Assembly: GCF_964204645.1 (NCBI RefSeq)
Contig: NC_134032.1
Location: 4,674,175-4,738,174 of the forward strand
DNA: 64,000 bases
Origin: Tubulanus polymorphus
Taxonomy: Eukaryota; Animalia; Nemertea
Direction of reading: 5' to 3'
The translations under genes were made by a program, and so were the position numbers. Under the pieces are notes generated by a model. It ran no database searches. It was not told the DNA's origin and saw only the letters and a list, made by a program, of their open reading frames with translations. Within the stretch, counting starts at the first letter, position 1. The number at the start of each line of letters is the position of its first letter. Positions 3,253 to 64,000 of the stretch are shown here, one piece after another.

Positions 3253-3253
3253 G

Positions 3254-3814
3254 TGTAACAACTGTCTTCTTCTTGTTGTCCCTTTCTCATCTGATCAACA
3301 CCAAGTGCAAGTTTAATCCATCATGAATTTTATTGATGACTTTTCTTTTTGCTGCAGCTTACAAAATATATTTCTATCCAGAGAGTTTGGTCAGAACTCT
3401 TCTCTAAAATGTAAAATTTTGGCCTATTTATACTAATCTATCTTCCTGGTATCTAAGTTATGATTCAATTTTTCCCAGAAAACAATAATTTGAATAGAAA
3501 CGTCCGCATGGGGAAAACCAAAGTTCGATGGAGAAAACCAAACTTCGATGGGGAAAACCAATCTTCGATGGGGAAAACCAGAACAATTATTTTTTGATAG
3601 ACAACTCTACCCGGAAAAACCTGAGAGTGAAATTACAATTTTTTGAGAGAACTAATTTTTGTGAGCATGATTTATGATAGGGAAGTTGATAATATTTAAG
3701 AGCTTTATATTTTTGTGAACATGATTTATGATAGGGCCCTAAGATATTTAATTATTTAATGAATTTATACCAGGATGATAGATTTAGTAATGTGACGATG
3801 ACCGCGTCGTCACA
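3254..3814 (-). repeat. 5' LTR of Gypsy element 1 (~561 bp)
   Basis: TG...CA termini (TGTGAC...GTTACA) next to the PBS. Contains ~3.5 copies of a 20-bp repeat (GGGAAAACCAAACTTCGATG, ~3510-3580) and a terminal palindrome at 3791-3814. Confidence 0.75.
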
Positions 3815-6800
3815 CTTACACCCAACATAAGATATTACGCATTGTTTTAGAATAACAGATTACCGGAAATATGAAACATTATATAAAATTGATCAATATC
3901 CAGTAACTATAAAAATGTTTCCAAAAATAGAAAAAGTTAATAATTTAAAAATAAATGTATTCGAATTAATACAATTACCAAAGACAAAAGGTGAAAATAT
4001 TAAAGATTATACATTAGAAGCTTTATATTTAACAGAATATTATGATGATGAAAATGCTATAGATTTGTTATATTACAAAAAAGATGAAAATGAACATTAT
4101 ATGTGGTTAAAACAAATTGATTCATTCTTTAGAACAACAGAAAGTGATCACCATCGTAAAATTTATCTGTGTAGAAAATGTTTATCTAAATTTATGACTG
4201 AGAATGCGTTACTAAAACTTAAAGAATAATGTGATAATAAAGATTTTTGTTAATTAATAATTCCAACAGAAAAAGATTATAAATTGAAATTTACTAATCA
4301 TAAATTTAAAAATATTGTTCCATTTGTAATTTATGGGGATTTTGAATCGTTGAATAAAGAATTAACTGATCAAGATAGAAAAGAAATATATAACAAAAAG
4401 CAATTTTTAAAATCAATGGATAAAGGAAATGAATTAAATAAATTAATTAAGATATAATTCAAGATCCACCAATTATAAACACAATTAAAAAAGTTCATCA
4501 AAGAGCTGCTGCTTATGGAATTTACATAAAATCAAATTATCCCGAATTATATGAAAGTCAATATATTTCTTTCAGAGGTGAAGATGTAGTTAATGAATTT
4601 TGTAATAAAATAATTGAATTAGAAAATGATTTTGCAAAATTATTAAACAAAAATAAAAGAATAGTTATGACAAAAGAAGATGAAATTGATTTTAATTATG
4701 CAACTCATTGTTGTTACTGTGAAAAACGTTTTTATTCATTCAATAAAAAAGTTAGAGATCATGATCATTTAAATTCAAAATACCGCGGAGCTGCTCAGGA
4801 AGATTGTAATTTACAAGCTAAGAAAGTTAATTTCGTACCAATATTATTTCATAATTTATCAGGCTATGATACCCATCTATTTATAAGACAATTATCAGGA
4901 AAATTGGGTGCAATTAATCAAGAAATAGAAGAATATAATGCTATGAATGGTACAAATGTAAGAAAGTATGATTTTAAACTATTAGCTAAAACATCTGAAA
5001 ATTATATTTCATTTCAATTTGGTTGCATTAGATTTTTATAGATTTCTTGCAAGGTCATTAGATAATTTAGCAAAAAGTTTAGTTGATAATGATTGTGTTA
5101 TAACTCGATATTATTATCCAGATGAACAAGATTTTAAATTATTGAGATATAAAGGTGCAATTCCTTATTCATTTTATAAAACACACAATGATTTTAATGA
5201 AAGAGAATTATTAAAAGATCAATTTTATGATCAATTAAAAGAGGAGTATCTGAAAGATGAAGTGTTTAATAGAACATAAAATATTTGGAATCACTTTAAG
5301 ATAGAAAATCATGGTGAATTAGTAGATTTATACTTAAAATCAGATGTTATGATAGTGGCTGACATATTTGAAAAATTTAGAGAAGTTAATTTGAATCATT
5401 TTAATGTTGATCCCTGCTATTGCTACTCTAGTCCTGGTTTAACCTGGCAATGTGGTTTAAAATATACTAATGTAGAATTGGATTTATTTAAAGAACCAGA
5501 CATGGTTTTATTATTTGAAAAATCAATTAGAGGTGGAATTAGTATGTGTTATGGGACATTTTAAAGCAAATGATGAATGTAAATTATTATATATCGACGC
5601 CAATAATTTATATGGTTGGGCAATGATGCAACCTCAACCATACAAAAATTTTATATTAATAGAAGTTCAAAATGATTATAAAACTGATTGGGAAAGTGCA
5701 ATTAAGAGTTTAAAAGATGGAGCACCAATTGGTTATTTCTTTGTAGTTGATTTGGAATATCCTGATAACATAAAATTAAAAACAAGAAACTTACCATATT
5801 GCCCAGAACACTTAACCGAAGATGATAGTTATTTAAGTAAATACCAGAAAAAAATAAAACCGAAATATCTTTAAAATTGAAAGATTTTTACAGAAAAATT
5901 GATATTAACACAAAATAATAAATATAATTATACTGTTCATTATAGAATGTTTATGTTAATTTTATCTAAAACAAGGAATGAAAATAAAGAAAGTACATAG
6001 ATATATTGAATTTAATCAATCGAAGTGGTTAGAAAAATATATAGATTTTAATACTCAACAGAGAACCATATAAAAAACAGATTTTGAAAAAGATTTCTTC
6101 AAATTTATGAATAATAGTTTTTATGGTAAAACATGTGGAAATATTAGAAATAGAAATGATATTGAATCAGTAAATAATTCGGAACGATTAAGACATTTAC
6201 AATCAAGTCCTAGACATTTAGGAAATAAAAGATTTGAAGATTATTTAACAGCAGTTAAATTAAAAAGAACGTCAATGAAATTTAATAGACCTATATTCAT
6301 TGGTTCAACTGTTTTAGAAGTATCAAAATTATTAATGTATGATTTTTATTATAATGTTTTACAACCGCTTTTTGGGGAAAAGCATATTGAAATATTATAT
6401 TTTGATTCTGTAACAGCTGACACCCCAATATTAATAAAATGTAATGATAAAATATTGATAAGAAGAATTTCAAAAATAATTCCAAAACAAAATAAATGTT
6501 ATATTTCATATGGTGAAAAAGAATTAATGCAAATAAATGGATTAATGGATGTTTGGACAAGAAATGGATGGAAAAAATTAAAGAATATTAATAGGCATAA
6601 AACAAATAAGAAAATCTATAGAGTTAGAACTAAATTAGGGTTTGTAGATGTTACAGAAGATCATAGTTTAATTAAACGAAATGGTAATGAAATAAAACCA
6701 ACTGATATAAAAATTGGAGATGAATTATTACATAAAAGATTTTTCCAAAGAATGAATCATATGTCATTTGATGAAATAATTGATAATATTTATAATATAG

Positions 6801-7852
6801 AACCTGAAACATTAGTAGAAAAAGAATATTTTATCAAAGGATTTTTTATGGGAGATGGTTCAGCAGGTGTGTATAAATATGTTTGGGGTAATAAATATTG
6901 TTGGTATTTATGCAATCAAGATTTGATATTATTAGAAAGAATAAAGAAATATTGTGAAGAAGTTTATCCAAATAAAGCATTTAAAATCATGGATGTTATG
7001 AAATCGTCAGCAGTTTATAGAATACTTGTAAATAATCCTAAAGACTTTGCTATAAAATATAATGATGAATTCTATATTCATGCAATAGTGAAAAGTAATA
7101 CTTCAACCAAAGAAAAGATGGTTCCAGATTATGTATTAAATGTAAAATATAATTTAAGAAAATGGTTCTTCATTGGATTTTATGCAGCAGATGGTTCAAA
7201 AAAGTATCAAAAACCGCAAAACAATATCTTTAGCTCGGAAAGGAAAATGTGCAATAAGTGGGTTAAATGTGTTATGTAGTTCATTAGGTTTTGATATGAA
7301 TATTGCATGGATTAAATCTAAACCAAATTGCTTTAATTTAAGCCATGTAGAAAATGAGTTAACTGAAGAAGTTAGAGATTTATTCGAAATACATAATCCA
7401 TCAGATTATATTTATGATTTATCAACTGAAGATGGCACATTTAACATTAAAACATCATTTTAATTTTAGCAATTACCCAAAAGATCATGAACTATTTAGC
7501 AATGATTATAAAATATTCCTGGTAAGTTTAAAGATGAATTAGGGGGTGATGAAATGATTGAATTTGTTGGGATAAGGAGTAAAACGTATAGTTGTAGAAC
7601 AAAAGATCATGAAGCTTAAAAGTTAAAAGGAATAACAAAACATGTGGTTGATAAACATATAGAATTTCAAGATTGCCTATAGTGTTTATATAACTCAATT
7701 GTTATGAAACATAAAATGAATTGTTTAAGATCAGAAGATCACGAGATGTATATTAATGTTGAATTAAAGTTGAAAAATCTAGTTTGAATCCATTTGATGA
7801 TAAAAGGCATATTTTAGATGATGGTATAAAAACATTACCTTATGGTTATTAA
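3815..7852 (+). pseudogene. polB: Protein-primed family B DNA polymerase (vOTU-like N-terminus, EndoVII-like insert, intein), disrupted
   Basis: LHP...YPV..FPKIEK.NNLKINVF...HY (OTU-like); FVIYGDFES (Exo I); RDHDHL..KYRGAA...CN; FHNLSGYD (Exo II); YLKSDV (Exo III); YIDANNLYGWAM; K.MNNSFYGK; YFD|intein; GKFKDE; FDDKR...TLPYG. Several stops and frameshifts. Confidence 0.95.
6407..7445 (+). other. Intein with LAGLIDADG homing endonuclease in pPolB motif C (copy A; C-terminal splice junction deleted)
   Basis: Starts right after YFD with SVTADTPILIK. Block B DVTEDHSL; LAGLIDADG motifs FIKGFFMGDGS and FFIGFYAADGS; block F YIYDLSTEDGTFN. An 83-bp deletion relative to copy B removes block G and TDS. 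Confidence 0.92.
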
Positions 7853-21915: not shown

Positions 21916-21979
21916 TGTATATCTTTAAACGAATACTAATCTAAAATAACATTTTTAAAAATTTCCAACCCAAAAAACA

Positions 21980-22517: not shown

Positions 22518-22518
22518 G

Positions 22519-30957: not shown

Positions 30958-31036
30958 CTTATGAAGACGATCATATTTTATCTAGTGCCTTAGTGGAGAA
31001 TCTTACTAAGTTTTGATTAATTTTTTCAGTTTTCCC

Positions 31037-33685: not shown

Positions 33686-33711
33686 ATTAGATAGAGGTAA
33701 CTGAAATTCAT

Positions 33712-34051
33712 AGGCGTTTTAACGAGCATCCGATTTTTGCGATCGATCGGAGAAACGCATTTACGAGCACCGATTTTTGCGATCGATTTCAAGATCTGCG
33801 TTTTTACGAACACGATTTTCCGATCGATTTTTGCGATCGAACAACTCGCTCCACGATCGATTTGGCGATTTGATTTCCAAGATGGCGGCACTTTGTAGTG
33901 GATAAAGATATTATCTTTCCACGTCGCCATGTTTATGTCATGTGATTTACCTAAACTGTCATCGTTTTTACGAACATTCGATTCGATCGCACGATCGACG
34001 CAAATCGTTCACGAAATCGATCGCAAAAATCGGATGCTCGTAAAAACGCCT
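33712..34051. mobile_element. MITE (AGGCG termini, Harbinger-like) between the two EnSpm genes
   Basis: ~35-bp TIR AGGCGTTTTWACGAGCATCCGATTTTTGCGATCGAT with internal CGATCG repeats. Confidence 0.8.
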
Positions 34052-34257
34052 CTGATTTAGTGGATTTTTAACAATTTTATCCATTTGTCTGATTTAAAAG
34101 AATTTATTGGTTTGCTGACTATTGAATTTAAAAAATAAAAAAGATAGTAGCCATGATCACAAACATTTTTGGGACAAGCCAAATTCTGAAATACCCCAGT
34201 TCCTCCATTTGTAAGGATATTAATTGCATTAAAATGAATTAGTTCTTTATTTTACAG

Positions 34258-37200
34258 ATGGATGACCGTGATACTGAATTTGATTTTGAGGCGTGGTGTA
34301 TATCTAATAGTATCACTGAAAATACGAAAGAAATTTTATTGCACGAAGATTTGGCTAGAAAAGACTGTTTGAAAATGTTGGAACCGGACATCGTTAAAGA
34401 ATTAAAACTATCAATTGGTCAACGACTGGCACTTATGAATGGCGTTGCAAAACTTCAATGTTATAATAGAAATTCACCACAAACTCAATTTCCCAAAAGT
34501 TCTCAATCGTCTAGTTCATTTACCAGTAATCAGTCTTTCACTGTAAGTGAATTTGATGATTCAGCTGATGAAATGGAGGTTTTCAAAATTCCTTATGATA
34601 AGATTGATTCTTCAACTCTGGAGTTATTACGAAGTAATACTAAACGAAATTCCGCTGGCATGAAAGAATTAATCCGCAACATTACAGCCCAAATTGTATA
34701 TCAGAAGATTCCTACAGCCAAATCAAGCATTGAACGAGTCGCTAGAAAATTAACCTCGAAATTTCCTTGTCTAAAGGAAACCGACTTAAGCGGTAGGCCA
34801 ATTGGTAACGGTATACAATCACTCGTATCTAGCATTCAGTGGAGACTTATTAATCAAAGGAGACTTTGTACTAAACCGACCGTGTACACTTCGAAAAAAC
34901 GAGTTGGAGGAGGTGATCTTGAAGGAACATCATGCGTTTCTTCTAGTAATCGTGATAGTTACGGTTGTATCAACTGGTCAGTTAGACATGCAGAAGGTGA
35001 AACGCCAGTTTCACAAGTTATGAAACAGGAGTTTTTAAAAAGTGAATTTATAAAAGGTGTATATAATGCAGAGATTGACGAAGCCATGCGTCTAATATAC
35101 TCGTCTCAAAGGCATATGATAAATAGTCATGAGCCGTTGTCAGAAATCCGCAATGCATGGCCATATTTAATGACATACAAATATCTGATGGCGCATTTTG
35201 ATACTCTTATGCATTTATCGACTCATGACTTATTTGATGAAGCAATAATGGCCAACAACAAAGCAGGTAGTTTATATAATTTTATAATGCGAAAGAGTAA
35301 AAATGCTAAGTGCAGCAGCTGGGTGGCGGAAATGGATAAACATATTGCACAAAAAAGGAATAAAGAGGCGCTGACAATTGGATTCTTGCCACTTCTGGTA
35401 AGCTACTTCGAAGAAGATGTCGATTTTGTGTTTCGTGTTTTTAGTGTAAGTATTGATTTTAAAAGGGTTCTTCTGCACTGTATCTATCAAGTATAATTAT
35501 ATGTATTTTAAGTGAAATGACAATAATCTTGTATCTTTCCTGAATAACGTTGCTGGAAATGGGTAGATTGGGCTCAGTTCATACATAAAAAACTATGCCA
35601 TTTTGTCGATGATTTCCACAAAATTTTCAGATAGCATAAGTTGTGAATTTGAAAAACTAGACTTTGCTCTATGTTGTTATTACCTCAAAAAGATTCCATT
35701 CGTGCTGCTGGGATATTATATTCTTGATTGAACTTCATTTGGACTAAAAATTACATGTATAAGCAGAATCAAAATGGCATACTGTTGACTTGTTAAAAAT
35801 AGATATTGAATATTTCTTGTATTTTTTTATTTTTAGGAGAGAAACGCTATCAGAAATCTAGGAAATTCTGCAATAATTATTGCTCTAGGTAAGATTAATC
35901 AAATTTGTTTATGTGATGATGAGGAAATTTTATTTCACAAAAGAAAAATCTACCACATCATTCCTTTACCATTTTCGAAATGTTTTTCGTTCTGAATGTG
36001 ATTCTTATCTGTATAAAAATTGACATGTGACTTTATTTTGCAGCTCTTTCATGTTGTTTGTACATATTACAAACATATTTACTTCATATTGTTTGTACGT
36101 ATTGTTTTCTTATGGCAGTCTTACGTAACCCTGCAACTTTTAAAGGCTAGCTTAGGTCGACTTGCTACGCAAGGGATACATAACAACTGTCAGGAACCAG
36201 TGGTGTTCCATGCACCACGTAAGCTTGCCTGAACTCAATCTATTAAGGCTAAAAATGTGATACCTTGTTTCACGCTTCACTATCGACTGGGTCACTAGTA
36301 GGCAATTCAATTTATCATGATTTCGGAAATAAAAATCATCTGGGTAGATAGAATAAGAGATTCAATTTGGCAAGTTATAGAGGAATGCGATATAATATTT
36401 TAGCCTATAAGATTTTGAATTTTTGATATTTTGCATATACACACTGAAATTTTCCTTGCAGGTGAAAATATCTTTGAATCAACGGAGTTTCTTATTGCTG
36501 TGGAAAGCAGAATTTTGATAGAGTGTTTAAGTACATGGCAACAGGCTGTAGAGGCATGGTTTTCTGTGCATTATGTTTTTAATCTCGCATATGATGACAA
36601 CTGCAAGACCACTTTGGAATTTATTCAGAGGTATAATCCTTCATATTTCATGAAATTGAATGAAAATAGTGATAAGACCGCTTTTTAGGGAATTAGAGAT
36701 CAAAGTGGTACCCGCATTGATCTCTAAGGCAATCAAGGATTCCATGTTTGCAGGCAAGGATCCACCAGGTGTCACTAGTAGACAGTTTGTCTTCTGCGTT
36801 AAGAGTTCTACATTTTAATTAAGGCTGAATGAACTTTACTCTTAAATGAATCAATTTTAATGAAAACTATACCGATATCTCATTGGAAGAATGAAAGTAT
36901 TTGATGAGTCCTGCGACTATATTTATTCGGTGCAAACTAATTTTGACAACTGACGACCTACGGCGTGTCACGTTGCGAGTTCCCCATTGTTAAATTCAGT
37001 CATACCCTATTCCAAGGTGAACTATAAAGGACCAAAATTCAAGTCAAAAGTGTTAAGATGAGAAGTACTAAATATTTATAAAAAAATTGATTTCATATGA
37101 TTACAAGCACTTTAGTTATGAGACTCATTATCCCGATGAAGCTATTATGCATTAGTTGCAGACTTGTAATCTCCTAGGTGAGACAATTTTTTAGAAAGAT

Positions 37201-43295: not shown

Positions 43296-43654
43296 TAATC
43301 CAATAATAGATAGATATAGAAATTAAACGAGTAAAACGCAGTCTCAAAAGTTTTGTGACTTTCTCAAAATGTATCAAAAATTTAAGTAATTTTTATTTCA
43401 TAAGTCTTCAAATATTCATAAATGAACAGTTAAAAATTGTTGAAACATGTCGACTCAGCCGTAAAATCAACCCATTCACAGTCCCGAATGTGGGATAATG
43501 TCGGGCTTTAGAGAACATAATGATCCCGAGGTCTTCACATTTACAGATAAGATTATGTAAGCGTGTCGCGCGTTACACCGGATAGGCACACAATAGAAAT
43601 ATGAGCCGCACGTTCATTTGATTATCACCAATTAAGAGGACCGCTATTGTGAAA

Positions 43655-43900
43655 ATTGACTGCGGGAGGAATATTCCTCCCAAAGTCAATCGATGGAAAC
43701 TTGACCAAGGGGTCTGATATTCAAACAATTGACTTTGGGAGGAATATTCCTCCCAAGGTCAAACGAAGAGAATTTGACCTTCAGTTCTGATATTCAAAGT
43801 ATCGACTTCGGGAGGAATATTCCTCCGACTGTCAAACGAAGGAAAATGGACCTAGGTCTGATATTCGAAATATTGACTTTGGGATGAATATTCGTCCAAA
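43655..43900. repeat. ~72-bp tandem repeat x4 carrying the palindrome GGGAGGAATATTCCTCCC (mirrored at ~50285-50530)
   Basis: Palindrome at ~43665, 43737, 43810 and 43880. Confidence 0.85.
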
Positions 43901-45751
43901 CCTCTAACGCTAAAAACCTGAGCTTTTAGAATGATAGGTCTACATAAATGATATTGATGTAATTGTTTTTAATAAATAGTATACTAAAGCGACGAAACCA
44001 GACGTATTTAGGCAATTTGATTGTTAATATACACTGTATTTGAGGGTCTGCGACAAATAATTGTAGAAAGTTAAATAGCTGTAGTACAGCTTCTTATAAT
44101 GAGCCTAATATAGTCTTCACATCGCAATCAGTTGTTAGAATGCATCTTCCTTTTTCTGGTTTTGATCTGAGACGACTAGTTAAATTTTTTTCTTGATTGA
44201 TTCACGCTGGGAGGTCTACATCAAATTATATTGTTGATCAAATCAATTATGTTTCAACTGCGAATTCACATTTGATATTGATATTAATAATCAATATTAC
44301 TCATCATTATATAGCGCACTGCTGCAAATTGTAACCAGTGTGCTTTTCACGGGTATAAAATTAACACAAGTTGAAGAAATCGAATTTGAAATACGAGGAT
44401 AATAAAGAATAAGTTGAAGGTAGGGCGGAGAGATCTGACGAAAAGAAACAACAAACGATATGGGCGCCAAATTGACCCATGCCTAATTGCCCGACCAAAT
44501 AGTCCGACCTGACCTGAGTCAAATTAAGCCGAGTCAAATTAGAGCTGGTTAATTTAAACTGGTTCTGGAAGTCAGTCACTTCGCTTTGCTTAAGTATGGA
44601 CTCGTTTTAGAGTCTCTTCAAGCATTGTTTAGTATCGAATGAATGGTTTTGCATTTGAATGTGAAATAAATTTGAACATGAAAATCAGCGCGCTCTTTGG
44701 TAAGCCATGAAAACAATTAAAGTCGGACGCTGATTCGAGCAAATTTTTTTGCAAATTAGCCATTGTCCTAGTTTTAACTTCTGATTTGTACCCTGTATAG
44801 GCCGGTTTATATTGCTGTTTGTACTCTTTCATACAAATTCGACAGATATCAAATGGCATCTTTGATTACAGACACTGTTGACCGGTACACACCAATATGT
44901 CCATCCATCCGACATACGAGCAATTATCTCATTAATGAGATAATTGCTCGTAGATCCGACAGCTACGTTTTACAACTAGAAGTGCATAAAATCAGATTCC
45001 TAATGATATTACATGTATTACTATTAAGAATAAGCTATTAATATATGAATAAATTCAAAAAGAATTTAAAAAATATCTTGCTTTGAATGGCTTTTAATTA
45101 AATATTGGAAAGGGCGATTTTGAAGGGGGAATTTTTTCTGCGGTGTCACTGCTAATCGAGTAATCAAGAAGCACAAACTCCCTAAGGTGATAAAGTGTTT
45201 TAAGCAGATCTTTTCCGATTGTGATCCCAATATATGAATTGCACATGGAACTATTATGTATAAACACCTCTCACAATTTACGTAACGACTGAGTGGCGTC
45301 CTTTTGCACAAGCTATATTACACCATGATGAAAAGCCTTTTATAGTTTAGAGTTGGATTTCTCGATGTATAAATGCAAGGAGGGTCAGAAGCTTTATGCT
45401 CAATAACATTAGGTTCCTATAAATGTTTGCTATGGATTTCAAAATAAAAGAATTTCTACGTTTAAATGAGATATCTGTTTCATTACTCGTGATATATCGA
45501 GGAATCTCTGCAATAAAATTTGACGATTTCAAAATTATTACAAAATGAGCAAACTTTGTGATATCTGCTAACAGTATAAATTCAAGCGTACATGCGGATT
45601 TGCGTGATATGTAATAAATATCGTAGCGAATAATCAAAGTGAGAAAAGTATCTACCGTAGCTAGAGATGATAATGAGTCCCATATCCAGAATGTCTGAAC
45701 CAAAATATCTCCCTAAAAAACCTTCAACCATTCAAAAAAACATAGGAATAT

Positions 45752-49967: not shown

Positions 49968-51687
49968 ATATAATTTGATGTAGACCTCCCAGCGTGAATC
50001 AATCAAGAAAAAAATTTAACTAGTCGTCTTAGATCAAAACAAGAAAAAGGAAGATGCATTCTAACAACTGATTGCGATGTGAAGACTATTTAGGCTCATT
50101 ATTAGAACCTGTACTACAGCTATTTAACTTTCTAAAATTATTTGTCGCAGACCCTCAAATACAGTGTATATTAACAATCAAATTGCCTAAATATGTCTGG
50201 TTTCGTCGCTATAGTATACTATCTATTAAAAACAATTACATCAATATCATTTATGTAGACCTATCATTCTTAGCGTTAGAGGTTTGGACGAATATTCATC
50301 CCAAAGTCAATATTTCGAATATCAGACCTAGGTCCATTTTCCTTCGTTTGACAGTCGGAGGAATATTCCTCCCGAAGTCGATACTTTGAATATCAGAACT
50401 GAAGGTCAAATTCTCTTCGTTTGACCTTGGGAGGAATATTCCTCCCAAAGTCAATTGTTTGAATATCAGACCCCTTGGTCAAGTTTCCATCGATTGACTT
50501 TGGGAGGAATATTCCTCCCGCAGTCAATTTTCACAATAGCGGTCCTCTTAATTGGTGATGATCAAATGAACGTGCGGCTCATATTTCTATTGTGTGCCTA
50601 TCCGGTGTAACGCGCGACACGCTTACATAATCTTATCTGTAAATGTGAAGACCTCGGGGGCATTATGTTCTCTAAAGCCCGACATTATCCCACATTCGGG
50701 ACTGTGAATGGGTTGATTTTACGGCTGAGTCGACATGTTTCAACAATTTTTAACTGTTCTTTTATGAATATTTGAAGACTTATGAACTAAAAATTACTTA
50801 AATTTTTGATACATTTTGAGAAAGCCACTAAACATTTGAGACTGCGTTGTAATTCAACGAAGTTATCACCGTGAACATCGTATAGAAATAATCTACAATA
50901 TGTTTGGGAATCGGAAGAAAAGACGTGATCGTGTTTGGCAATGTGGTACAGAGCCGTCGGAACAGGGGCGGCACTTTTTTGCTTAACAAAAATCTTTTCA
51001 TGCCTATTTTCAAAAGCATGCTCTACCGCGTAGCAGCTCGTCATTCTCAGTACTATGTGGTGCGCTCGCGACTTCTCATGTTTCTGTGAATGAGACCGTG
51101 AAATGGCCCCAAAACGCATCTCCGGCGATTGAATTTTCAAAATTTTTCTGGGGGAGTAATGGTCCCCAGACCCCCTTTCAGAAATAAGCCTCGCCACTGA
51201 AAAATTCCTTCCGACGCCTCTACACACGCACACGCTCGCACGTGTATATGAATACGCAATATTGAGTTCGATTTAACCGATCGCTCACTCACTCGCTTAC
51301 ACACACTCGCATAAGAGTGAATTACGAAAATGTCTGGCGAATTTTTTACCGTTAAAAAAAAAAACCTTAAAAAACTACGTAGTGTCCGCAAAGGTTCGTC
51401 TTGCATCTCTGTTTTCGGATTTTGAATATATTTTTGGTCTAAAGTCAATTCCAGCTTCGCTTTCGATCTAATTCCTGATATCTAATTCGGTTAATGTCAA
51501 CAAATCAGATTGAGTGTAATCGTTTGAGTGGGCTTGACATCTATTCGGAAATACCATTGTATTTCCCGATTTATGCCCAGACTATCTGAAACACGTCACC
51601 CGGACCTTTTAGACTCCAAGATGAACCGATTATCGATAATTTCCGTAAACATCAGAAATTCAACAAACTATGCACGTTTTTGCAGGA

Positions 51688-54600
51688 ATGATTACTGAAA
51701 TGAAGCTGCAAGCTTTATGTATAGTTTTGTTATCAGTAGCAGCAGCAGCAACAGCAGCAGCGGCGGCAGCACAAGCATCAGGTAATAAGTCCCTTACGAT
51801 TCATCTGCATTGCGCTGACGTCCTTATTACATTATTTCTAAACCCATGCTTCCAATTTTAGTTCAAATTAAAAGGGTACTTACTATGTATTTTTCCTGTA
51901 AAAACCTAAAATTGTTTAAAAAAAGCATCGAACGATTGAACAAACTCGTTGCAGGGGTCGATCCAGAGGCCAATTTTGAATGACTTGTTTCCACCCGAAA
52001 ATAAACTCCAAAATCTTTTCAATTTATCTGGGTCAGCCCTTCTGCATTTGGCGATGTACGTATAGAAAAGGTTTGCAATTATGTTATTTGCAAATATTAT
52101 TACTATTTATGATATTTGAAAAACATGAACAAGTAAGACATAAACGAAACTGCAATATGGTAATTAACCATAGCGACTTCACCGCCCCCTACAGGTAAAA
52201 CTATGTGGACCCCAGAGTGGCAACAGGTATTTTTATAAACTATGCTGATCTGATCTATCGATTGATGTATGTTGCCAAAAATTTACAAAAAAATGCCGTA
52301 ATATCCAATTTTTGAACCTTCGGCAGGCCGACTATTATTTATATCTGTCATGTTCGCCGTACTGTTGTTATGTGTTGGCGCGGTTATTGGGTTTTTCCTT
52401 TTTTCTTTCCATAAATATATTGTATTGTTTGTTCATTATTATTCATTCATAATTGCAGCTATGATTTCCTATGTATTTATGTGCGTCAATCCAACTCATT
52501 TAATCTATTCACATTTATGCGAGTTTTAACATTACAGCAGCCATGCGAATAAGTAATTCCGTGTCCCGGTGAGTGTTTCATTGCATTGGTCGCCGACTTA
52601 TGAAATTAGTGAATTCAGTTACTGAAACGTTGGTTAACCGGTGGATAAATACCGTAGAAACAATGAACTTAATTGTCACTATGTCAGCTATCCACTGGTT
52701 AACCCTGAACAATCTTTTAGGCCTTTTTTAATTGCTTGGTTTACGGGAACCGCCTCCGAAATTTGAAGAAAAGTCAAATGAAAATAATATATTTTTCTTA
52801 TTCCTGTGCGTGGGACAAGTTCAGTGAAAAATTGAGCAAAAAAAGTTTTTTTCACCTCCGCCGAACAAGAATCCTGGCTGGAATGATAAAAACATTGAAA
52901 AATGCGAGGTTCTTTTTTGATCACACTGTGCAGAATACGAACTTCCCATGATTTGTTTGGACGTATGTACAATGCCCTATCGATAGTTCCCTCTTCCTTC
53001 AGAAAGTGATTTCATTTTATTTTTCTTTAAATTCCATTTCCTCCTCCGAAATGATAATTGAATAGGTCTACCGCCTAAACTGATCAATTAAAATAGGCCC
53101 CAGGAACTGACTCCAGGGAATCCGAATTGGTTATTGCTTATTTCACCCAGAGTGTGTAACCTGCACTGAAAAGATTGGCCCTAGCTAGTTTGTCTTCATA
53201 TTGATACAGACTATGTATTTGTGTGTGTGTCAATCAGACTTATCTTAATTCAGATATTCAGATAATAATTCAGAATTCGGATAAGGCCGAATCATCCTTT
53301 GCAGTCGCTACTCTTTACCGTAAAAACCAGCTTAGATTATTTGGCCAGCTGAGATTTTAGCCAGCCCCGATTATATCACTTGTTGACCTCGAGTTTACTG
53401 AGTACGGGAGCTTCAATCACAGTCGCAAGAAAAATTGACGACGAAGTAGAACTTTCATTAGGATGAGGTTAGAAGCGGGTGAGGTCATGGTTTAGGAATG
53501 GTATAAATGTACAAATTAGTATATAAATCTAAGGTTTTGGTTCAGGGAGAAAAGAGAACAGGAGGGAGCTAATAATTTAACAATATGAAGAAGAATAACA
53601 GCAACAGTGTGATCATATAAGCAAAACGTGTTAGCACTTTATATCTGCCTGATCGAGGAAAGAGGAAGATCCAGCGGTACGAGATTAATTAGAACAACAA
53701 TAGAGGAGAGTCAGAGGACACAACACTGGTGGAGAACTTCGTGACACAACAAGTGGAGGGGAATCTAGTGGAATAATTAGTGGTACAGATTGTTAAGTGA
53801 CATATCAGTGGTTGAGATTGTAGTCTGAAAACCGGCATATATATGAGTACGAATGAAGTAGAACTTTAGAAGAAGTAGAATTTTTAAGATACGTAGTAGG
53901 TAAGCCTTCAAATAGACTGCTAGATGGCCGATATGTTTTATGAGATGAGGGGGGAAGAATTTCGTATGGAGGAATGGAATGAGGGAAATTACAATGTATC
54001 AGTTTCTTGATCATATTTCAAAAGTTATCTTAATGTTGGCTATATAAAAGGTCTTTCGGAGAAATAGTGAGCGAGTTTCTCGGAACGGAACTTTACAAAA
54101 TACGTGTATCGTTCGTCGTGGTAGTCGTCGTTGTTGTCAATGAAGATCGAAATAATCATTATCTTTATTTCCAGCTCAAAACTTTTGTGACTCGACCAAC
54201 GACTGCGGAGTGGGAGTCGATTGCGTCGATACAGAGTTTTCTTATTATTGTAAATGTCGGGATGGTTTTGTGCTCAGCGCCGATCGAAAACTGTGCAAAG
54301 GTAAGCAGGCATGCAATCTCTTATTACCGACTGCCCCCGTGTGCCATTAGCTATCAATCCAGGGGGGCGTATTAGACGATTGTTTTTTCCAGTAATTTTT
54401 TTGTTTGTTTATTTCTAACAAGGATTTAGGCATTTATTTGTTTGATTGGTAGATTTCGTTTGGTTTGCCTTGATTTGGTCTCCCTCACAAACCCATCACT
54501 CACACCTGCATTTTCATTCAAACAATCTTCCAACCAGCCCGAATCGACAAGTGACACATCGGGGTCAATTTTGTTGGCTGCCTGATTTAATACATCGAGA

Positions 54601-55312
54601 TCTTGGTAATAACGGTTCTACAAGGTTGAAGATCATAACATTTTAGCCACCATTTTCCACCGATTATAGTTCGTTTTGACGCGATTGAAAAAACAAATTT
54701 TGAAACGCAAATAATCTATCTACACATGTCGATTATGCCATACGATTGCTTAAACATTTCCGTGAAAGTTCCTACCTTTTGTAGTTATGAACAACCTAAT
54801 AATTACCAGATGAAATTAGCAGCGATGAGGGGCAAGATTCTAAAATTTTCAAATATTTCACATTACCATTTTCCACTTTTCCACATTTCTTAAAACAAAA
54901 AAAAACAGGTTTTTTCACAATTTTTTCTATTCATACGAAAAACATATTTTTTCACATTTTTTTAACACAACCAGTCAATGGTGACATACTTATAGATGTC
55001 TTCTTTTTCTACGTGATTTTATGCAAGAGGGAAGTTTCCAGTTACCAGGCGCCATTTTTTGTCCCGCATAGTTGGGGGGATTTTAAAAGTTTTACAGTAA
55101 AACCTTTAGCGCGATGTGTTTTAACAATATGTATGTTTCTTAGCCGTTCTATAGTTCTTTTTCCATTTACACAGAATTGAATTGCGTTTGCGATAGCGGT
55201 TGGACGCGAGCCTCGCCAGGCAAATGCTTCAAATACACTGCGTCGGGCCGGGATGATATTCGCTCACAATTGGCCAAGATCGACAACGCAAACGAAAACG
55301 AGGTGGTCGGAA
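51688..55312 (+). pseudogene. Host secreted-protein gene remnant: signal peptide, EGF-like, C-type lectin-like exons
   Basis: Exon ~51688-51781 MKLQALCIVLLSVAAA; phase 1-1 exon 54175-54300 QNFCDSTNDCGVGVDCVDTEFSYYCKCRDGFVLSADRKLCK (EGF); exon 55175-55312 CDSGW....GKCFKY...SQLAKID...EN (start of a CTL domain, internally shortened). Cut off by Polinton DNA at 55344. Confidence 0.7.
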
Positions 55313-55343
55313 GTAAGTATGTCAAAAAATCTTTTTTTAATCT

Positions 55344-56515
55344 CGTTTTTATTCATTCGATAAAAAAGTTAGAGATCATGATCATTTAAATTCAAAATAT
55401 CGTGGAGCTGCTGATGAAGATTGTAATTTACAAGCTAAAAAAGTAAATTTCGATCCAATATTATTTCATAATTTATCAGGCTATGATACCCATCTATTTA
55501 TAAAACAATTATCAAGGAAATTGGGCACAATTAATCAAGAAATAGAAGAATATAATGCTATGAATGGTGTAAATGTAAGAAAATATGATTTTAAACTATT
55601 AGCTAAAACATCCGAAAATTATATTTCATTTCAATTTGGTTGCATTGGATTTTTAGATTCTTATAGATTTCTAGCAAGTTCATTAGATAATTTATCAAAA
55701 AGTTTAGTTGATAATGATTTTATAATAACTCGATATTATTACCCAAATGAACAAGATTTTAAATTATTGAGATATAAAGGTGCAATTCCTTATGATTTTA
55801 TAAAACACGCAATGATTTTAATGTAACAGAATTATTTAAAGATCAATTTTATGATCAATTTAAAGAGGAGTATGAGAAAGATGAAGTGTTTGATAGAACA
55901 TTAAATATTTGGAACCATTTTAAGATGAAAAGTCATGGTGAATTAGTTGATTTATAATTAAAATCAGATGTTATGATATTGGCTGACATATTTGAAAAAT
56001 TTAGAGAAGTTAATTTGAATCATTTCAATTTTGATCCTTGTTATTGCTACTCTAGTCCTGGTTTAACCTGGCAATGTGGTTTAAAATACAGAAATGTAGA
56101 ATTAGATTTATTAAAAGAACCAGACATGGTTTTATTATTTGAAAAATCAATTAGAGGTGGAATTAGTGGTGTTATGGGAGATAGGTATTTTAAAGCAAAT
56201 GATGAATATAAATTATTATATATTGACGCCAATAATTTATATGGTTGGGCAATGATGCAACCTCAACCATATAAAAATTTTATATTAACAGAAGTTGAAA
56301 ATGGTGATAAAACTGATTGGGAAAGCGCAATTGCGAGTTTAAAAGATGAAGCACCAATTGGTTATTTCTTTGTAGCTGATTTAGAATATCCTGAAAATAT
56401 AAAGTTTAAAACAAGAAACTTACCTTATTGCCCAGAACATTTAACTGTAGATGATAGTTATTTAAGTGAATACCAGAAGAAAAATAAAACCGAAAGATCC
56501 TGTTTTTACAGAAAA
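55344..56515 (+). pseudogene. polB: Duplicated pPolB fragment (EndoVII insert to motif A region)
   Basis: Copy of 58671-59842. Confidence 0.92.
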
Positions 56516-57501
56516 CTAGTTTGTCTTCATATTGATACAGACTATGTATTTGTGTGTGTGTCAATCAGACTTATCTTAATTCAGATATTCAGATAATAAT
56601 TCAGAATTCGGATAAGGCCGAATCATCCTTTGCAGTCGCTACTCTTTACCGTAAAAACCAGCTTAGATTATTTGGCCAGCTGAGATTTCAGCCCCGATTA
56701 TATCACTTGTTGACCTCGAGTTTACTGAGTACGGGAGCTTCAATCACAGTCGCAAGAAAAATTGACGACGAAGTAGAACTTTCATTAGGATGAGGTTAGA
56801 AGCGGGTGAGGTCATGGTTTAGGAATGGTATAAATGTACAAATTAGTATATAAATCTAAGGTTTTGGTTCAGGGAGAAAAGAGAACAGGAGGGAGCTAAT
56901 AATTTAACAATATGAAGAAGAATAACAGCAACAGTGTGATCATATAAGCAAAACGTGTTAGCACTTTATATCTGCCTGATCGAGGAAAGAGGAAGATCCA
57001 GCGGTACGAGATTAATTAGAACAACAATAGAGGAGAGTCAGAGGACACAACACTGGTGGAGAACTTCGTGACACGACAAGTGGAGGGGAATCTAGTGGAA
57101 TAATTAGTGGTACAGATTGTTAAGTGACATATCAGTGGTTGAGATTGTAGTCTGAAAACCGGCATATATATGAGTACGAATGAAGTAGAACTTTAGAAGA
57201 AGTAGAATTTTTAAGATACGTAGTAGGTACGCCTTCAAATAGACTGCTAGATGGCCGATATGTTTTATGAGATGAGGGGGGAAGAATTTCGTATGGAGGA
57301 ATGGAATGAGGGAAATTACAATGTATCAGTTTCTTGATCATATTTCAAAAGTTATCTTAATGTTGGCTATATAAAAGGTCTTTCGGAGAAATAGTGAGCG
57401 AGTTTCTCGGAACGGAACTTTACAAAAGACGTGTATCGTTCGTCGTCGTAGTCGTCGTTGTTGTCAATGAAGATCGAAATAATCATTATCTTTATTTCCA
57501 G

Positions 57502-58639
57502 CTCAAAACTTTTGTGACTCGACCAACGACTGCGGAGTGGGAGTCGATTGCGTCGATACAGAGTTTTCTTATTATTGTAAATGTCGGGATGGTTTTGTGC
57601 TCAGCGCCGATCGAAAACTGTGCAAAGGTAAGCAGGCATGCAATCTCTTATTACCGACTGCCCCCGTGTGCCATTAGCTATCAATCCAGGGGGGCGTATT
57701 AGACGATTGTTTTTTCCAGTAATTTTTTTGTTTGTTTATTTCTAACAAGGATTTAGGCATTTATTTGTTTGATTGGTAGATTTCGTTTGGTTTGCCTTGA
57801 TTTGGTCTCCCTCACAAACCCATCACTCACACCTGCATTTTCATTCAAACAATCTTCCAACCAGCCCGAATCGACAAGTGACACATCGGGGTCAATTTTG
57901 TTGGCTGCCTGATTTAATACATCGAGATCTTGGTAATAACGGTTCTACAAGGTTGAAGATCATAACATTTTAGCCACCATTTTCCACCGATTATAGTTCG
58001 TTTTGACGCGATTGAAAAAACAAATTTTGAAACGCAAATAATCTATCTACACATGTCGATTATGCCATACGATTGCTTAAACATTTCCGTGAAAGTTCCT
58101 ACCTTTTGTAGTTATGAACAACCTAATAATTACCAGATGAAATTAGCAGCGATGAGGGGCAAGATTCTAAAATTTTCAAATATTTCACATTACCATTTTC
58201 CACTTTTCCACATTTCTTAAAACAAAAAAAAACAGGTTTTTTCACAATTTTTTCTATTCATACGAAAAACATATTTTTTCACATTTTTTTAACACAACCA
58301 GTCAATGGTGACATACTTATAGATGTCTTCTTTTTCTACGTGATTTTATGCAAGAGGGAAGTTTCCAGTTACCAGGCGCCATTTTTTGTCCCGCATAGTT
58401 GGGGGGATTTTAAAAGTTTTACAGTAAAACCTTTAGCGCGATGTGTTTTAAAAATATGTATGTTTCTTAGCCGTTCTATAGTTCTTTTTCCATTTACACA
58501 GAATTGAATTGCGTTTGCGATAGCGGTTGGACGCGAGCCTCGCCAGGCAAATGCTTCAAATACACTGCGTCGGGCCGGGATGATATTCGCTCACAATTGG
58601 CCAAGATCGACAACGCAAACGAAAACGAGGTGGTCGGAA
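57502..58639 (+). pseudogene. Duplicated EGF (57502-57627) and CTL-like (58502-58639) exons
   Basis: Second-unit copies of 54175-54300 and 55175-55312. Confidence 0.7.
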
Positions 58640-58670
58640 GTAAGTATGTCAAAAAATCTTTTTTTAATCT

Positions 58671-61600
58671 CGTTTTTATTCATTCGATAAAAAAGTTAGA
58701 GATCATGATCATTTAAATTCAAAATATCGTGGAGCTGCTGATGAAGATTGTAATTTACAAGCTAAAAAAGTAAATTTCGATCCAATATTATTTCATAATT
58801 TATCAGGCTATGATACCCATCTATTTATAAAACAATTATCAAGGAAATTGGGCACAATTAATCAAGAAATAGAAGAATATAATGCTATGAATGGTGTAAA
58901 TGTAAGAAAATATGATTTTAAACTATTAGCTAAAACATCCGAAAATTATATTTCATTTCAATTTGGTTGCATTGGATTTTTAGATTCTTATAGATTTCTA
59001 GCAAGTTCATTAGATAATTTATCAAAAAGTTTAGTTGATAATGATTTTATAATAACTCGATATTATTACCCAAATGAACAAGATTTTAAATTATTGAGAT
59101 ATAAAGGTGCAATTCCTTATGATTTTATAAAACACGCAATGATTTTAATGTAACAGAATTATTTAAAGATCAATTTTATGATCAATTAAAAGAGGAGTAT
59201 GAGAAAGATGAAGTGTTTGATAGAACATTAAATATTTGGAACCATTTTAAGATGAAAAGTCATGGTGAATTAGTTGATTTATAATTAAAATCAGATGTTA
59301 TGATATTGGCTGACATATTTGAAAAATTTAGAGAAGTTAATTTGAATCATTTTAATTTTGATCCTTGTTATTGCTACTCTAGTCCTGGTTTAACCTGGCA
59401 ATGTGGTTTAAAATACAGAAATGTAGAATTAGATTTATTAAAAGAACCAGACATGGTTTTATTATTTGAAAAATCAATTAGAGGTGGAATTAGTGGTGTT
59501 ATGGGAGATAGGTATTTTAAAGCAAATGATGAATATAAATTATTATATATTGACGCCAATAATTTATATGGTTGGGCAATGATGCAACCTCAACCATATA
59601 AAAATTTTATATTAACAGAAGTTGAAAATGGTGATAAAACTGATTGGGAAAGCGCAATTGCGAGTTTAAAAGATGAAGCACCAATTGGTTATTTCTTTGT
59701 AGCTGATTTAGAATATCCTGAAAATATAAAGTTTAAAACAAGAAACTTACCTTATTGCCCAGAACATTTAACTGTAGATGATAGTTATTTAAGTGAATAC
59801 CAGAAGAAAAATAAAACCGAAAGATCCTGTTTTTACAGAAAAATTAATACTTACTCAATATAATAAATACAATTATATCGTTCATTATAGAATGTTAAAA
59901 ATTTATCTAAAACAAGGAATGAAATTAAAGAAAGGACATAGATATATTGAATTTAATCAATCGAAGTGGTTGGAAAAATATATAGATTTCAATACTCAAC
60001 AGAGAACCATATCAAAAACAGATTTTGAAAAAGATTTCTTCAAATTAATGAATAATAGTTTTTATGGTAAAACATGTGAAAATATTAGAAATAGAAATGA
60101 TATTGAATTAGTAAATAATTCTGAAAGATTAAGACATTTACAATCAAGTCCTAGACATTTAGGAAATAAAAGATTTGAAGATTATTTAACAGCACTTTAA
60201 TTAAAAAGAACGTCAATGAAATTTAATAAACCTATATTCATTGGTTCAACTGTTTTAGAAGTATCAAAATTATTAATGTATGATTTTTATTATAATGTTT
60301 TACAACCACTTTTTGGGGAAAAGCATATCGAAATATTATATTTTGATTCTGTAACAGCTGACACCCCAATATTATTAAAATGTAATGATAAAATATTGAT
60401 AAGAAGAATTTCAGAAATAATTCCAAAACAAAATGAATGTTATATTTCATATGGTGAAAAAGATTTAATACAAATAAATGGTTTAATGGATGTTTGGACA
60501 AGAAATGGATGGAAAAAATTAAAGAATATTATTAGGCATAAAACAAATAAGAAAAGCTGTAGAGTTAGAACTAAATTAGGGTTTGTAGATGTTACAGACG
60601 ACCATAGTTTAATTAAACGAAATGGCTATGAAATAAAACCAACTGATATAAAAATTGGAGATGAATTATTACATAAAAGATTTTTCCAAAGAATGAATCA
60701 TATGTCATTTGATAAAATTATTGATAATATTTATAATATAGAACCTGAAACATTAGAAGAAAAAGAATATTTTATCAAAGGATTTTTCATGGGTGATGGT
60801 TCAGCAGGTGTGTATAATTATGTTTGGGGTAATAAATATTGTTGGTATTTATGCAATCAAGATTTAAAATTATTAGAAAGAATTAAGAAATTCTGTGAAG
60901 AAGTTTATTCTCATAAAACTTTTAAAATCATAGATGTTATAAAATCATCAGAAGTTTATAGAATACTTGTAAATAATCCTAAAGATTGAGCTATAAAATA
61001 TAATGATGAATTCTATATTCATGCAATAGTGAAAATTAATACTTCAACAAAAGAAAAGATAGTTCCAGATTATGTATTAAATGCAAAAAATAATTTCAAG
61101 AAAGTGGTTCTTCATTGGATTCTATGCCGCAGATGGCACTAAAAAATCTACATAGGATAAACAGATAACCTTTGCACAGAAAGGTTGCTATTTTAGGATT
61201 AAATATATTATGCAGTTCATTAGGATTTAATATGAATATAGAATCAATTAAATCTAAACCAAATTGTTTTAATTTAAGGCATGTAGAAAAAGAATTAACA
61301 GAAGAAGTTAAAGATTTATTTGAAACATATAACCCATCAGATTATGTTTATAATTTATCAACTGAAGATGGTACATTTAACTGTGGATTTCCATTAATTG
61401 CAAAAAATACTGACAGTTACATACTAAAAATCAAGACAAATGACATAACAAAAGACTTAAAAACATTAAAACATCATTTTGATTTTAGCAATTATCCCAA
61501 AGATCATGAACTATTTAGCAATGACAATAAAAAGATTCCTGGTAAGTTTAAAGATGAATTAGGGGGTGATGAAATGATTGAATTTGTTGGGATAAGAAGT

Positions 61601-61862
61601 AAAATGTATTACAGAACATAAGATCATGAAGCTAAAAAGTTAAAAGGAATAACAAAACATGTGGTTGATAAACATATAGAATTTCAAGATTATATAAAGT
61701 GTTTATATAACTCAATTGTAATGAAACATAAAATGAATTGTTTAAGATCAGAAAATCACGAGATGTACATTAATGAAGTTGAAAAAAACTAGTCTGAATC
61801 CATTTGATGATAAAAGGCATATTTTAGATGATGGTATAAAAACATTACCTTATGGCCATTAA
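58671..61862 (+). pseudogene. polB: Intein-containing pPolB, copy B, disrupted
   Basis: RDHDHL, FHNLSGYD, YIDANNLYG, KLMNNSFYGKT, YFD|intein|TDSYI, PGKFKDE, IRSKMY, FDDKR, TLPYGH*. Stops and frameshifts. Confidence 0.95.
60348..61408 (+). other. Full-length (~353 aa) LAGLIDADG intein, both splice junctions present
   Basis: YFD|SVTADTP ... DVTDDHSL ... GFFMGDGS ... GFYAADGT ... YVYNLSTEDGTFNCGFPLIAKN|TDS. Excision restores the YFDTDS catalytic motif. Internal TGA at 60987 and two small indels. Confidence 0.95.
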
Positions 61863-63184
61863 AACAGAAAATCAATATCACCATACTCGAAATCACTATT
61901 GGCTTCTTCATTTTCATTTAATTGTTCTTGTATAATTTGTTTAGGATCTTCCATTTCATTTTTCTCATTTAAATAACGTGTTATATTGTGCCACATTTCA
62001 TCTCGCTCTCTTTGTTTCTTTTTGTTTGTTAATTCATCAAATGGAATTATAATATCTAGGTTTAAATAATTTACAATCTTATTTAAAAAGAATTCATAAT
62101 TAATTGAATCTGTTATTCTATTTTCCAAATGATACATTAATATTTGTTTGAATGTTTTTTTAATATCTTCCATATCTTCTTCTTTTAATTTAGGTTTTTC
62201 ATATTAATAGTTAAATAATAAATATAAATACATTTTCTTTTGTTTTGTGTTAAATGTTGATGGAATAATTCTTTTTGTAATATCTTTTTTAGTTATTTCA
62301 CCATTTTTATTTTCTATTATTTTCATTTTTCAAGCCATTGCATATATTCTGGTGTATGATCTTCTATAGAAAATATTTTAAAAATTTCATCTAGATAATT
62401 TAATTTTGGTTCTATGAGAAAATCTCTAGTTTTTTCTTCACCCCATAAATTCCTTTGCCATCCACAATCAACACAAAATATCTCAGTACCCTCTTCTCTT
62501 AAGGTCGCATAATAACATTGTGGGCATTTTTGTTTATAATTTCTTGGTAATAGATCTTCATTAAGCTCTTGGTATTTACTTACGTTTTCTTTATGTTTTA
62601 TTGTTCTATTATGTAGATTTGAATTACTTGCTGTAATAATCAATTTACAATATTTACAATAATATGTTTTTCTTGTTAATTCATTATATTGTTTTTCTAA
62701 CTTTTCAACTGTTTCTTCATTATCTGGTAACGTTTTCTCATATTTTATTTTTTCTAATAAACTTTTTTTTCATTCATTGAATTCAGTTTCAAATTTATTA
62801 GAAATTTTATCTATATGTATTTTACGAAATTGATGATTCTCCCAAGCTTCTATATTTTCAGGACTAAATTTCATTCGACAAGGCTCGCAGAAATGATCTT
62901 TCATATTATCCTTGTCATAGAATATGAAAGGTCTTTTCCAAATAATTTCAGGTTCAACTTCAGAATTACTATTACTTTCATTACTATCAACATTAGCCGT
63001 TGCGCCATTAATTTTACACTTCTCTGAATGTTTTTTAACATAATTTCTTGAGAATAATTTATTACATTTTGGGCAGTTTATTTTAGGGGGTTTTATAATT
63101 TTCATCGTGTTTTTTCATATGTCGAGCCATATTACTTTTTCTTAGAAGTTCACCACAAATTTCGCATGGTATCTTCTCATCCAT
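61859..63184 (-). pseudogene. Three small Polinton genes (zinc-finger-like), copy B
   Basis: ORFs 61859..62173, 62323..62643 and 62770..63105, orthologous to 7855-10119. Confidence 0.7.
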
Positions 63185-63253: not shown

Positions 63254-64000
63254 ATGGTAGAATTAAAAGAATACAGAATATTTGTTGATTCTAGAAAACT
63301 TACAAATTATAAATCACATAATTTATTAGTACAATCAGATAGAGATTTTAAGAATTTTGTTGATTTAAAATTGTATTTAAAAGTTAATATAAGTTTATGT
63401 AATTCTTTTTATAATGTATCGGATAAAAGTTTAGAACATTTAATTTTTTCAATCTTTTACAAAAAAAGGAATAAATGGTTTTTTATACATTTAAAACCAG
63501 GATTATATAATTTAGATACATTAGCACAAGAAATTAATAGAAAAGCTCGAGCTAAATTAGGAAGCGATTCCGGATTTAGTATTAGAATTTGTGGTAGTTC
63601 TAATAAAATAAAGATTAGGTTAGCTCATGACGAACAATTTAAATTTACAGTAAGAAAACCTTCAGGTAAACTGTTAGGAATTAACCCAGATATTGTTACA
63701 GCATACGCAGAAGGTAGATCAAACTTAATACCTTACACACATTTCTATATTTATTGTAATTTAATTGATCCTACAAAAACATTTGAAGCAACTAAAGATA
63801 AAACTTGCAATTCTAGTATACTAAATATTTTACCATTAAAAAATGTTAAACAATTTTGAACTCAAATAAATTATAATTTAACAGAATGTGATTTTAATCC
63901 TTGCATTCCACATTTCAATAATTTGAAATTAGAAATAAGAAATTATAATGGTTATTTAATTGATTTGAATAACTTTCCTGTGATATATGAATTAGTTATA
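63254..64000 (+). pseudogene. Minor capsid (penton)-like protein, copy B (one premature TGA at 63857)
   Basis: MVELKEYRIFVDSR...SFYNVS...PGLYNLDTL...FYIYCNLID...ILPL; the frame continues after the stop as LKLEIRNYNGYLIDLNNFPVIYELVI. Confidence 0.68.

Follow-up and report, generated by a model that had tools for sequence, protein, structure and literature searches.

A predicted homing-endonuclease intein that interrupts motif C in the protein-primed DNA polymerase of a Polinton-like element from a very likely animal genome

The broken polymerase gene near the 3' end of the window (by which we mean the whole stretch of 64,000 nucleotides analysed here) very probably contains a homing-endonuclease intein in motif C of a Polinton-type protein-primed polymerase (pPolB), with predicted protein splicing, likely spread by homing and an old gain from the viral pol-c intein family. 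The intein is apparently undescribed and would extend a known intein family to a new class of host. Two copies lie in the window, A towards its start and B towards its end. Both are broken and, as read from their sequences, able neither to splice nor to home. Copy B has the following parts.

60348..61408, plus strand: intein, copy B, broken by two stops and two frameshift regions (six-frame translation, motif scan, TIGR01445, empty-site joints in reads)
60348..60677, end approximate, plus strand: N-terminal splicing (Hint) region with Ser1, block A and block B TxDH at 60594-60605 (TIGR01445 above cut-off)
60780..60800, plus strand: first LAGLIDADG motif, GFFMGDG (motif scan)
61117..61137, plus strand: second LAGLIDADG motif, GFYAADG, past a frameshift (motif scan)
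61346..61408, plus strand: C-terminal splicing region, block F and block G with the Lys-Asn end (motif scan)

By six-frame translation and motif scan, the 1061-nt insert of copy B splits polymerase motif C as YFD/S...KN/TDS (slashes mark the junctions). It starts with SVTADTP and ends with GFPLIAKN; TxDH stands at residue 83, GFFMGDG at 145, GFYAADG at 256 and block F at 331. The reading frame is interrupted by two in-frame stops (60987, 61153) and by frameshifts, which lie near 61097 and within 61146-61185. The preliminary description had claimed an insert at 60348..61408 with Ser1, block B, two LAGLIDADG motifs, block F, a Lys-Asn end and Thr at +1, and its coordinates proved exact. Both copies have the nucleophile Ser at intein position 1 (60348 and 6407) and keep the TxxH of block B, and in the motif scan each has two LAGLIDADG motifs with both acidic residues present. 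The terminal Asn and the Thr at +1 are found in copy B (KN/TDS) and are deleted in copy A. The acidic position of block F is substituted in copy B, and the penultimate residue of the intein is Lys, not the usual (non-obligatory) His; the penultimate-terminal pair in 216 non-redundant relatives is HN in 116, KN in 87 and SN in 13.

The NCBIfam intein N-terminal model TIGR01445 scored 25.2 on copy B and 29.7 on copy A with a cut-off of 24.5, and the Hint-domain match whose absence was to speak against an intein was thus found in both copies. The Pfam model Intein_splicing stayed below cut-off on the window fragments (20.2 and 20.7 vs 35.8) and was passed by one of the five intact pPolB-type relatives scanned (P0026, 37.7); PF14528 was above cut-off in P0023, P0026, P0028 and P0003. 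Because copy B, with its breaks read as X, matches the intein of P0023 with 61% identity (E 9e-140), chance resemblance is excluded. The Hint and LAGLIDADG fold was read from the predicted model of P0003, an intact relative 49% identical to the open stretch of copy A (pLDDT 92, pTM 0.91), and not from a window copy. The best PDB matches of this model were TliVMA (E 7e-17), PI-PkoII, PI-PfuI and PI-SceI, all endonuclease-bearing inteins, together with I-DmoI (TM about 0.7 on the target, rmsd about 3 A), and its best named viral matches were the phycodnavirus, Pandoravirus, Megavirus and Marseillevirus PolB inteins of BFVD. The claim that the pol-c site holds a true intein whose LAGLIDADG endonuclease has two motifs is supported, with TIGR01445 passed and the fold of P0003 in agreement.

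It is hardly credible that the insert is instead an intron, self-splicing or spliceosomal, that harbours an endonuclease ORF, or a Hint domain that does not splice. Intact relatives have an open and continuous frame across both junctions, the endonuclease of the P0003 model is flanked by Hint halves, and removal of the insert gives back YxDTDS exactly; without ligation, the only polymerase of the element would be dead. Intein chemistry as outlined in PMC549080 starts with an acyl shift at Ser1 and is aided by block B; the Asn at the end of the intein undergoes cyclisation, and Thr+1 takes the N-extein. In intact elements, predicted splicing through Ser1, the block B His, the terminal Asn and Thr+1 would restore the catalytic motif C. 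The endonuclease would cut the empty motif-C sequence in other copies, repair would copy the intein and some of its flank, and homing would take place between element copies within one nucleus.

The gene around the insert and its neighbours in copy B are as follows.

58671..60347, plus strand: N-extein, a broken, 5'-truncated pPolB with an endonuclease-VII-like HNH region, exonuclease, polymerase motifs A and B, and YFD (tblastn with P0023 and P0153; PF03175)
61409..61862, plus strand: C-extein, first residue Thr+1 (TDS), broken further 3' (translation, tblastn)
61862..62203, minus strand: VLTF3-like ORF fragment of the element (PF04947, E 1.9e-6, above cut-off)
62326..63114, minus strand: broken zinc-finger gene of the element (PF06220)
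63254..64000, plus strand: possible penton (minor capsid) gene, a lead only, broken and cut by the window end (viral Atlas look-alikes)

The intact relative P0023 (1693 residues) aligned by tblastn along copy B from 58692 to 61859 in six pieces with 53-69% identity. PF03175 was just below cut-off on a 161-aa window fragment (E 1.3e-5) and was passed by P0023, to which the polymerase of the element is 52-62% identical. The relatives P0023, P0026 and P0028 match PF03175 without PF00136; P0030 and P0031 match PF00136 and PF03104. PF00136, the RNA-primed PolB model, had no match in the window ORFs or the pPolB relatives, and the window-type pPolB exteins are about 20% identical to RNA-primed PolB exteins. 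The extein is thus protein-primed as had been claimed, with PF03175-type relatives, and is not an RNA-primed giant-virus PolB. We label pPolBs with PF02945 matches as HNH-type, and P0028, from its motifs, we take to be a VSR-type pPolB. For the putative penton ORF at 63254..64000 the Atlas look-alikes are viral, with one cluster 18% Adeno_Penton_B; a homologue search came back empty and the predicted model has a pLDDT of 41. No integrase, ATPase, protease or major capsid gene was found among the window ORFs scanned, the copies being truncated and copy B running off the window, and no inverted repeat pair bounding either element copy was found in the window, which does not take in both element ends. 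VLTF3 is known from a polintovirus subgroup (PMC11131425). We therefore call the element Polinton-like because of its polymerase, its neighbour genes and its copy number. A third pPolB fragment lies on the minus strand at 12480-13960; it is more diverged (72-74% DNA identity) and does not extend to motif C, and a YqaJ/PHD-like ORF at 13460-14521 continues its reading frame as a fusion.

Copy B is preceded by two host exons.

57502..57627, plus strand: host exon, cEGF module, AG/GT bounded (PF12662 above cut-off; spliced joint in a run X3 contig)
58502..58639, plus strand: next host exon, AG/GT bounded; the element starts 31 bases into the following intron (run X3 contig)

These exons are joined in a contig of run X3 (57625 to 58500, GT..AG), and contigs of runs X2-X4 cover the intein. 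In raw DNA reads from another study that bear the same species label, of which about 12% of the run was used for the depth comparison, depth was about 250-350 over the element vs 21-37 in four bins of adjacent host DNA. The spliced cEGF exons and the multicopy depth bear out that the element lies in a chromosome of a eukaryote, and an animal host is in our judgement very likely. The look-alike clusters of a neighbouring ORF are all Chordata or Arthropoda, and are weak by the tool's own measure. The junction at 58671 has no demonstrated bridging read and GC falls there from 38% to 25%, as might be expected if the element were symbiont or protist-virus DNA co-assembled with the animal chromosome, or if its host were not an animal. 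We regard this as quite improbable, since within 64 kb there are two independently decayed copies and a third, diverged pPolB fragment amid LTR, LINE and DNA-transposon remains, the element is about ten times as deep as the adjacent host DNA in the reads of the other study, and the flanking exons carry a cEGF module with GT-AG splicing. Bacterial or archaeal contamination was considered and rejected, the best prokaryotic MAG matches being 34-38% and in RNA-primed PolBs.

Several other features of the window were observed. A 3.3-kb tandem duplication (53185-56515 and 56516-59842, 99.7% identity) holds two host exons and the 5' polymerase fragment and stops before the intein; it is either a recent duplication or an assembly artefact. 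Two long open frames at 31010-35496 (891 and 417 codons) look like an intact CACTA/EnSpm-like transposon with a SAM-domain partner, with weak Pfam support. Inverted repeats of about 900 bp (43332-44231 and 49968-50851, 96%) have internal 73-bp units and a LINE fragment between them. LTR-retrotransposon remains are found at 1-3256 and 15819-23768, the latter with near-identical direct repeats at 15819-16660 and 22519-23768.

Copy A allows a comparison within the window.

3738..7849, plus strand: broken pPolB gene of copy A (tblastn)
6407..7443, plus strand: intein, copy A, with a frameshift near 7200 and an 83-bp deletion at the C-terminal junction (tblastn, motif scan, alignment)

Through the 83-bp deletion, copy A has lost its C-terminal junction together with block G and the terminal Asn. 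The same insert had been claimed for this second copy: its presence at 6407 and its separate decay were confirmed, but the C-terminal junction was not, KN/TDS being found only in copy B. The two copies are 94.5% identical over 60348-61000 and 86.2% over 61001-61381 (p 8e-6), the 3' part of the intein diverging more steeply, as a mosaic would. Between A and B, dN/dS was 0.27 (p 0.002) over the 133 codons of the linker and endonuclease, 0.20 (p 1e-4) over the last 64 shared C-terminal codons, 0.78 (p 0.72; 13 changes) over the first 115 codons, which are the N-terminal Hint part, and 0.27 (p 0.06) over 110 extein codons; neutral decay after insertion would have raised these values. As far as the codons tell, this shows purifying selection on the endonuclease part, a signal that folding instead of cutting could also cause.

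In order to describe alleles with and without the intein, we used raw DNA reads with the same species label. A total of 40 reads with 28 starts skip exactly from 60345 to 61407 (1061 bases), 42 reads with 27 starts join 60347 to 61417 via eight other letters, and 8 further reads have two similar joints. Because reads join exactly across the insert, intein-free alleles exist in the species of the window, with flanking codons like those of the full allele in some and different in others. At 82% likeness, the reads reached a depth of about 220-270 over the 5' intein half vs 530-680 just beyond both ends. The tabulated stop and frameshift of copy B are absent from most reads and are therefore private to copy B; whole copies are beyond the reach of short reads. 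Runs X6, X2 and X4 also contain an allele in which 346 intein bases (61055-61402) are swapped for a few letters, which looks like a further decayed variant.

Full and empty alleles were also found among relatives. The P0026 cluster has 136 members, of which 15 were listed and 13 compared: six are full, six are without exactly 346 residues, and one is short of the site. Eight of the 121 members of the P0027 cluster were compared, and one, P0163, is without exactly 339 residues. In the P0026 family, 9-11 of the 30 residues nearest the site are changed in empty alleles, vs 1-5% of residues elsewhere (p 2e-5 to 7e-12), and 1-2 of these 30 are changed in full alleles. Such diverged flanks may be either a footprint of copying or an escape from cutting. 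P0163, the sole empty allele of the P0027 family, has zero flank difference within 60 residues, a pattern that fits precise loss and homing equally. Proteins of the P0026 and P0027 types are encoded on long contigs in ENA (up to 1 Mb), which is what integration would give. Motif C, elsewhere D-T-D-S, reads D-C-D-S in the empty alleles P0149 and P0151 and D-T-D-A in four more.

These alleles bear on whether the intein still moves. One account would have a true intein that no longer homes and is inherited with its Polinton lineage, the empty alleles being older lineages or precise losses that ordinary recombination has reshuffled. It agrees with the flanks of P0163, with the identical GC of intein and extein (24.7%), and with the HNH-type pPolBs, where intein identity follows extein identity (44-65% vs 38-72%). 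We nevertheless judge it improbable, as both LAGLIDADG acidic residues are retained, dN/dS is low in the endonuclease part, the divergence peak lies exactly at the site in six of six empty P0026-family alleles, and the intein has jumped to P0028. We lean somewhat, and not strongly, towards the bolder view that homing inteins are actively spreading among Polinton copies in animal genomes as a natural gene drive, in which the endonuclease converts empty copies, empties with altered targets persist, and the intein has passed from one polymerase type to an unrelated one. If this is true, protein splicing would occur in animal cells whenever the elements replicate.

In order to place the intein among its relatives, we searched with copy A, which matched 22 of 567 candidates of about its own length and 129 of 2067 that were longer, and with a profile, which gave 2799 representatives at E 0.001, the best 150 of 2799 being used. 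Both junctions were found in 201 of 335 proteins, with 13 pPolB, 178 RNA-primed-like and 10 unclassified exteins. The 15 best matches of copy B are all pPolB-type (43-61%), and the next are RNA-primed (40%). Single-protein scans for close relatives in viral contigs and metagenome contigs found none. Alignment-based scans of contigs found both junctions in at least 126 of at least 164 loci, all of them RNA-primed PolB inteins among the matches listed, and no pPolB intein in viral or metagenome contigs was among those matches. The same intein family was observed at D/TD motifs of an ADP-ribosylglycohydrolase (P0036) and of type II topoisomerases (P0090, P0099, P0103, P0111); as their sequences read, D/TD-site inteins have spread among unrelated genes with a common short target.

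For phylogenetic trees, 294 inteins were reduced to 216 at 88% identity, and careful trees were calculated on subsets of 44 and 42 with all pPolB representatives, part of the group with a GFPL end, the top matches and a sample of the rest. The pPolB inteins are monophyletic (98/87), and with two archaeal pol-c inteins as outgroup the support is 100/100. Rooting in this way makes the GFPL group their sister (85/91); it includes GVMAG inteins and two inteins with T4-like phage exteins. The sister group shifts between trees with moderate support, and an AU test did not reject pPolB and the GFPL group as one clade (p 0.24), which is no proof of the clade. FastTree and a quick tree placed the pPolB clade with four long-branched phage-like inteins. 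We rejected this grouping, which is gone under the whole-intein mixture model and with the outgroup and persists in the Hint-only tree. In the Hint-only tree, calculated with no distant outgroup, the pPolB clade is not recovered; the pPolB inteins separate the four phage-like inteins from all others.

In HNH-type pPolBs, the identity of the inteins parallels that of the exteins (for example 62 vs 61/57%; 49 vs 48/44%). Since intein divergence tracks extein divergence, the gain would be old and may predate the animal host. The intein of P0028 is 44-47% identical to those of other pPolBs vs 17-26% for the exteins. The pattern reads as one old gain, after which the intein stayed for long, was lost and re-invaded, and jumped once from one pPolB type to another. 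We propose that the source of the gain was the pol-c intein family found in large DNA viruses, with giant viruses the most likely, and that the jump into the second pPolB type came later.

The preliminary description had proposed kinship with giant-virus PolB inteins, and identity, the trees of the pol-c family and the structural matches agree with it. It had also named a giant virus as donor. This is the likeliest donor, and we would put good though not high confidence in it, but the sister group (85/91) mixes GVMAG and T4-like phage inteins and leaves the donor unfixed. Co-infection in an animal, which the description took to be implied, need not follow, as the gain looks old and maybe pre-animal. 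For the origin step only, it is possible, though unlikely, that the donor was a large bacteriophage or that the transfer went from Polintons to giant viruses. On this side are P0209 and P0211 of the sister group, whose exteins match the phage polymerase family phrog_262 (E 2e-77 and 2e-163), and the Hint-only tree without a distant outgroup, which joins the pPolB inteins to the four phage- or archaeal-virus-like ones (95/96). With the archaeal pol-c outgroup, however, those four move off and the pPolB clade lies among mostly giant-virus-type inteins (85/91, 85/93); 8 of 20 non-pPolB members with a GFPL-type end are on GVMAG contigs, and annotated phages gave just two weak matches. As an observation in its own right, P0209 and P0211 are T4-like phage polymerases whose inteins group with giant-virus inteins (97/97), so that exchange between phages and giant viruses is probable. 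The close pol-c inteins L165 and L166 (37-38%) are in PolB genes on archaeal MAG contigs, one labelled Promethearchaeota, which are possibly viral contigs.

Inteins are stated to be absent from metazoan genomes (PMC8529194); this rule is to be qualified, as the intein described here is in an integrated virus-like element and not in a host gene. It ties Polintons to the mobile elements of large DNA viruses and is a marker whose movement needs shared cells. Near-identical full and empty alleles make homing and target-site escape directly testable, and the pPolB inteins and nucleases are potential tools for work in animal cells. The insert would mask such polymerases from annotation based on length or motifs. 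In the literature searched, which did not extend to most subscription journals, Repbase reports and preprint supplements, there was no earlier report of an intein in a pPolB or Polinton. A survey of viral inteins lists them from Nucleocytoviricota families and unclassified viruses, with zero for Metazoa in its supplement (PMC5784728); PMC12220804, PMC13768754, PMC3671162 and PMC5718144 treat inteins in general terms only, and the accessible part of bioRxiv 10.64898/2026.10.13.758929 does not mention them.

Compared with known systems, the element resembles Polintons, Mavericks and adintoviruses (PMC8502044, PMC11131425) in its PF03175-type pPolB, its VLTF3-like gene, and in being multicopy and integrated, and differs in its intein, which is absent from the main texts of these two sources as far as available. 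HNH and VSR domains are inserted in Polinton pPolBs (PMC10748475, where the word intein is absent from the accessible text), and such endonuclease insertions have been suggested to stem from intein invasions (PMC11071308, citing PMC10748475). They are likewise nuclease domains in a pPolB, and the extein of the window has such an endonuclease-VII-like region, but they are fixed and have no Hint domain described, whereas the window insert is separate from that region, lies in the catalytic motif, has splicing motifs and is polymorphic for presence and absence. Insect iridovirus inteins (cited in PMC549080 and PMC5784728) are alike in being inteins of animal-infecting viruses. The available part of PMC10710043 (two supplements of which have no mention of polinton or maverick) describes PolB inteins of viral kind on scaffolds from the nuclei of Klebsormidium, Tetrabaena and a labyrinthulid, likewise viral polymerase inteins in endogenous viral elements of eukaryotic nuclear genomes. 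Their hosts are algae and a protist and the genes are discussed there as derived from giant viruses, whereas the intein of the window has a very likely animal host and a carrier that is Polinton-like and multicopy, and its full and empty alleles coexist. The pol-c inteins of giant-virus PolBs (Mimivirus R322, PMC549080; BFVD entries) share the motif C site, a length of about 350 residues, Ser1, the terminal Asn, Thr+1 and two LAGLIDADG motifs, and the identity of the window-type intein is up to about 40% with giant-virus-type metagenomic members and 20-32% with named entries via the relative P0003. Unlike those inteins, the one described here has a protein-primed extein, is carried by a multicopy element in a nuclear genome, and belongs to a separate clade.
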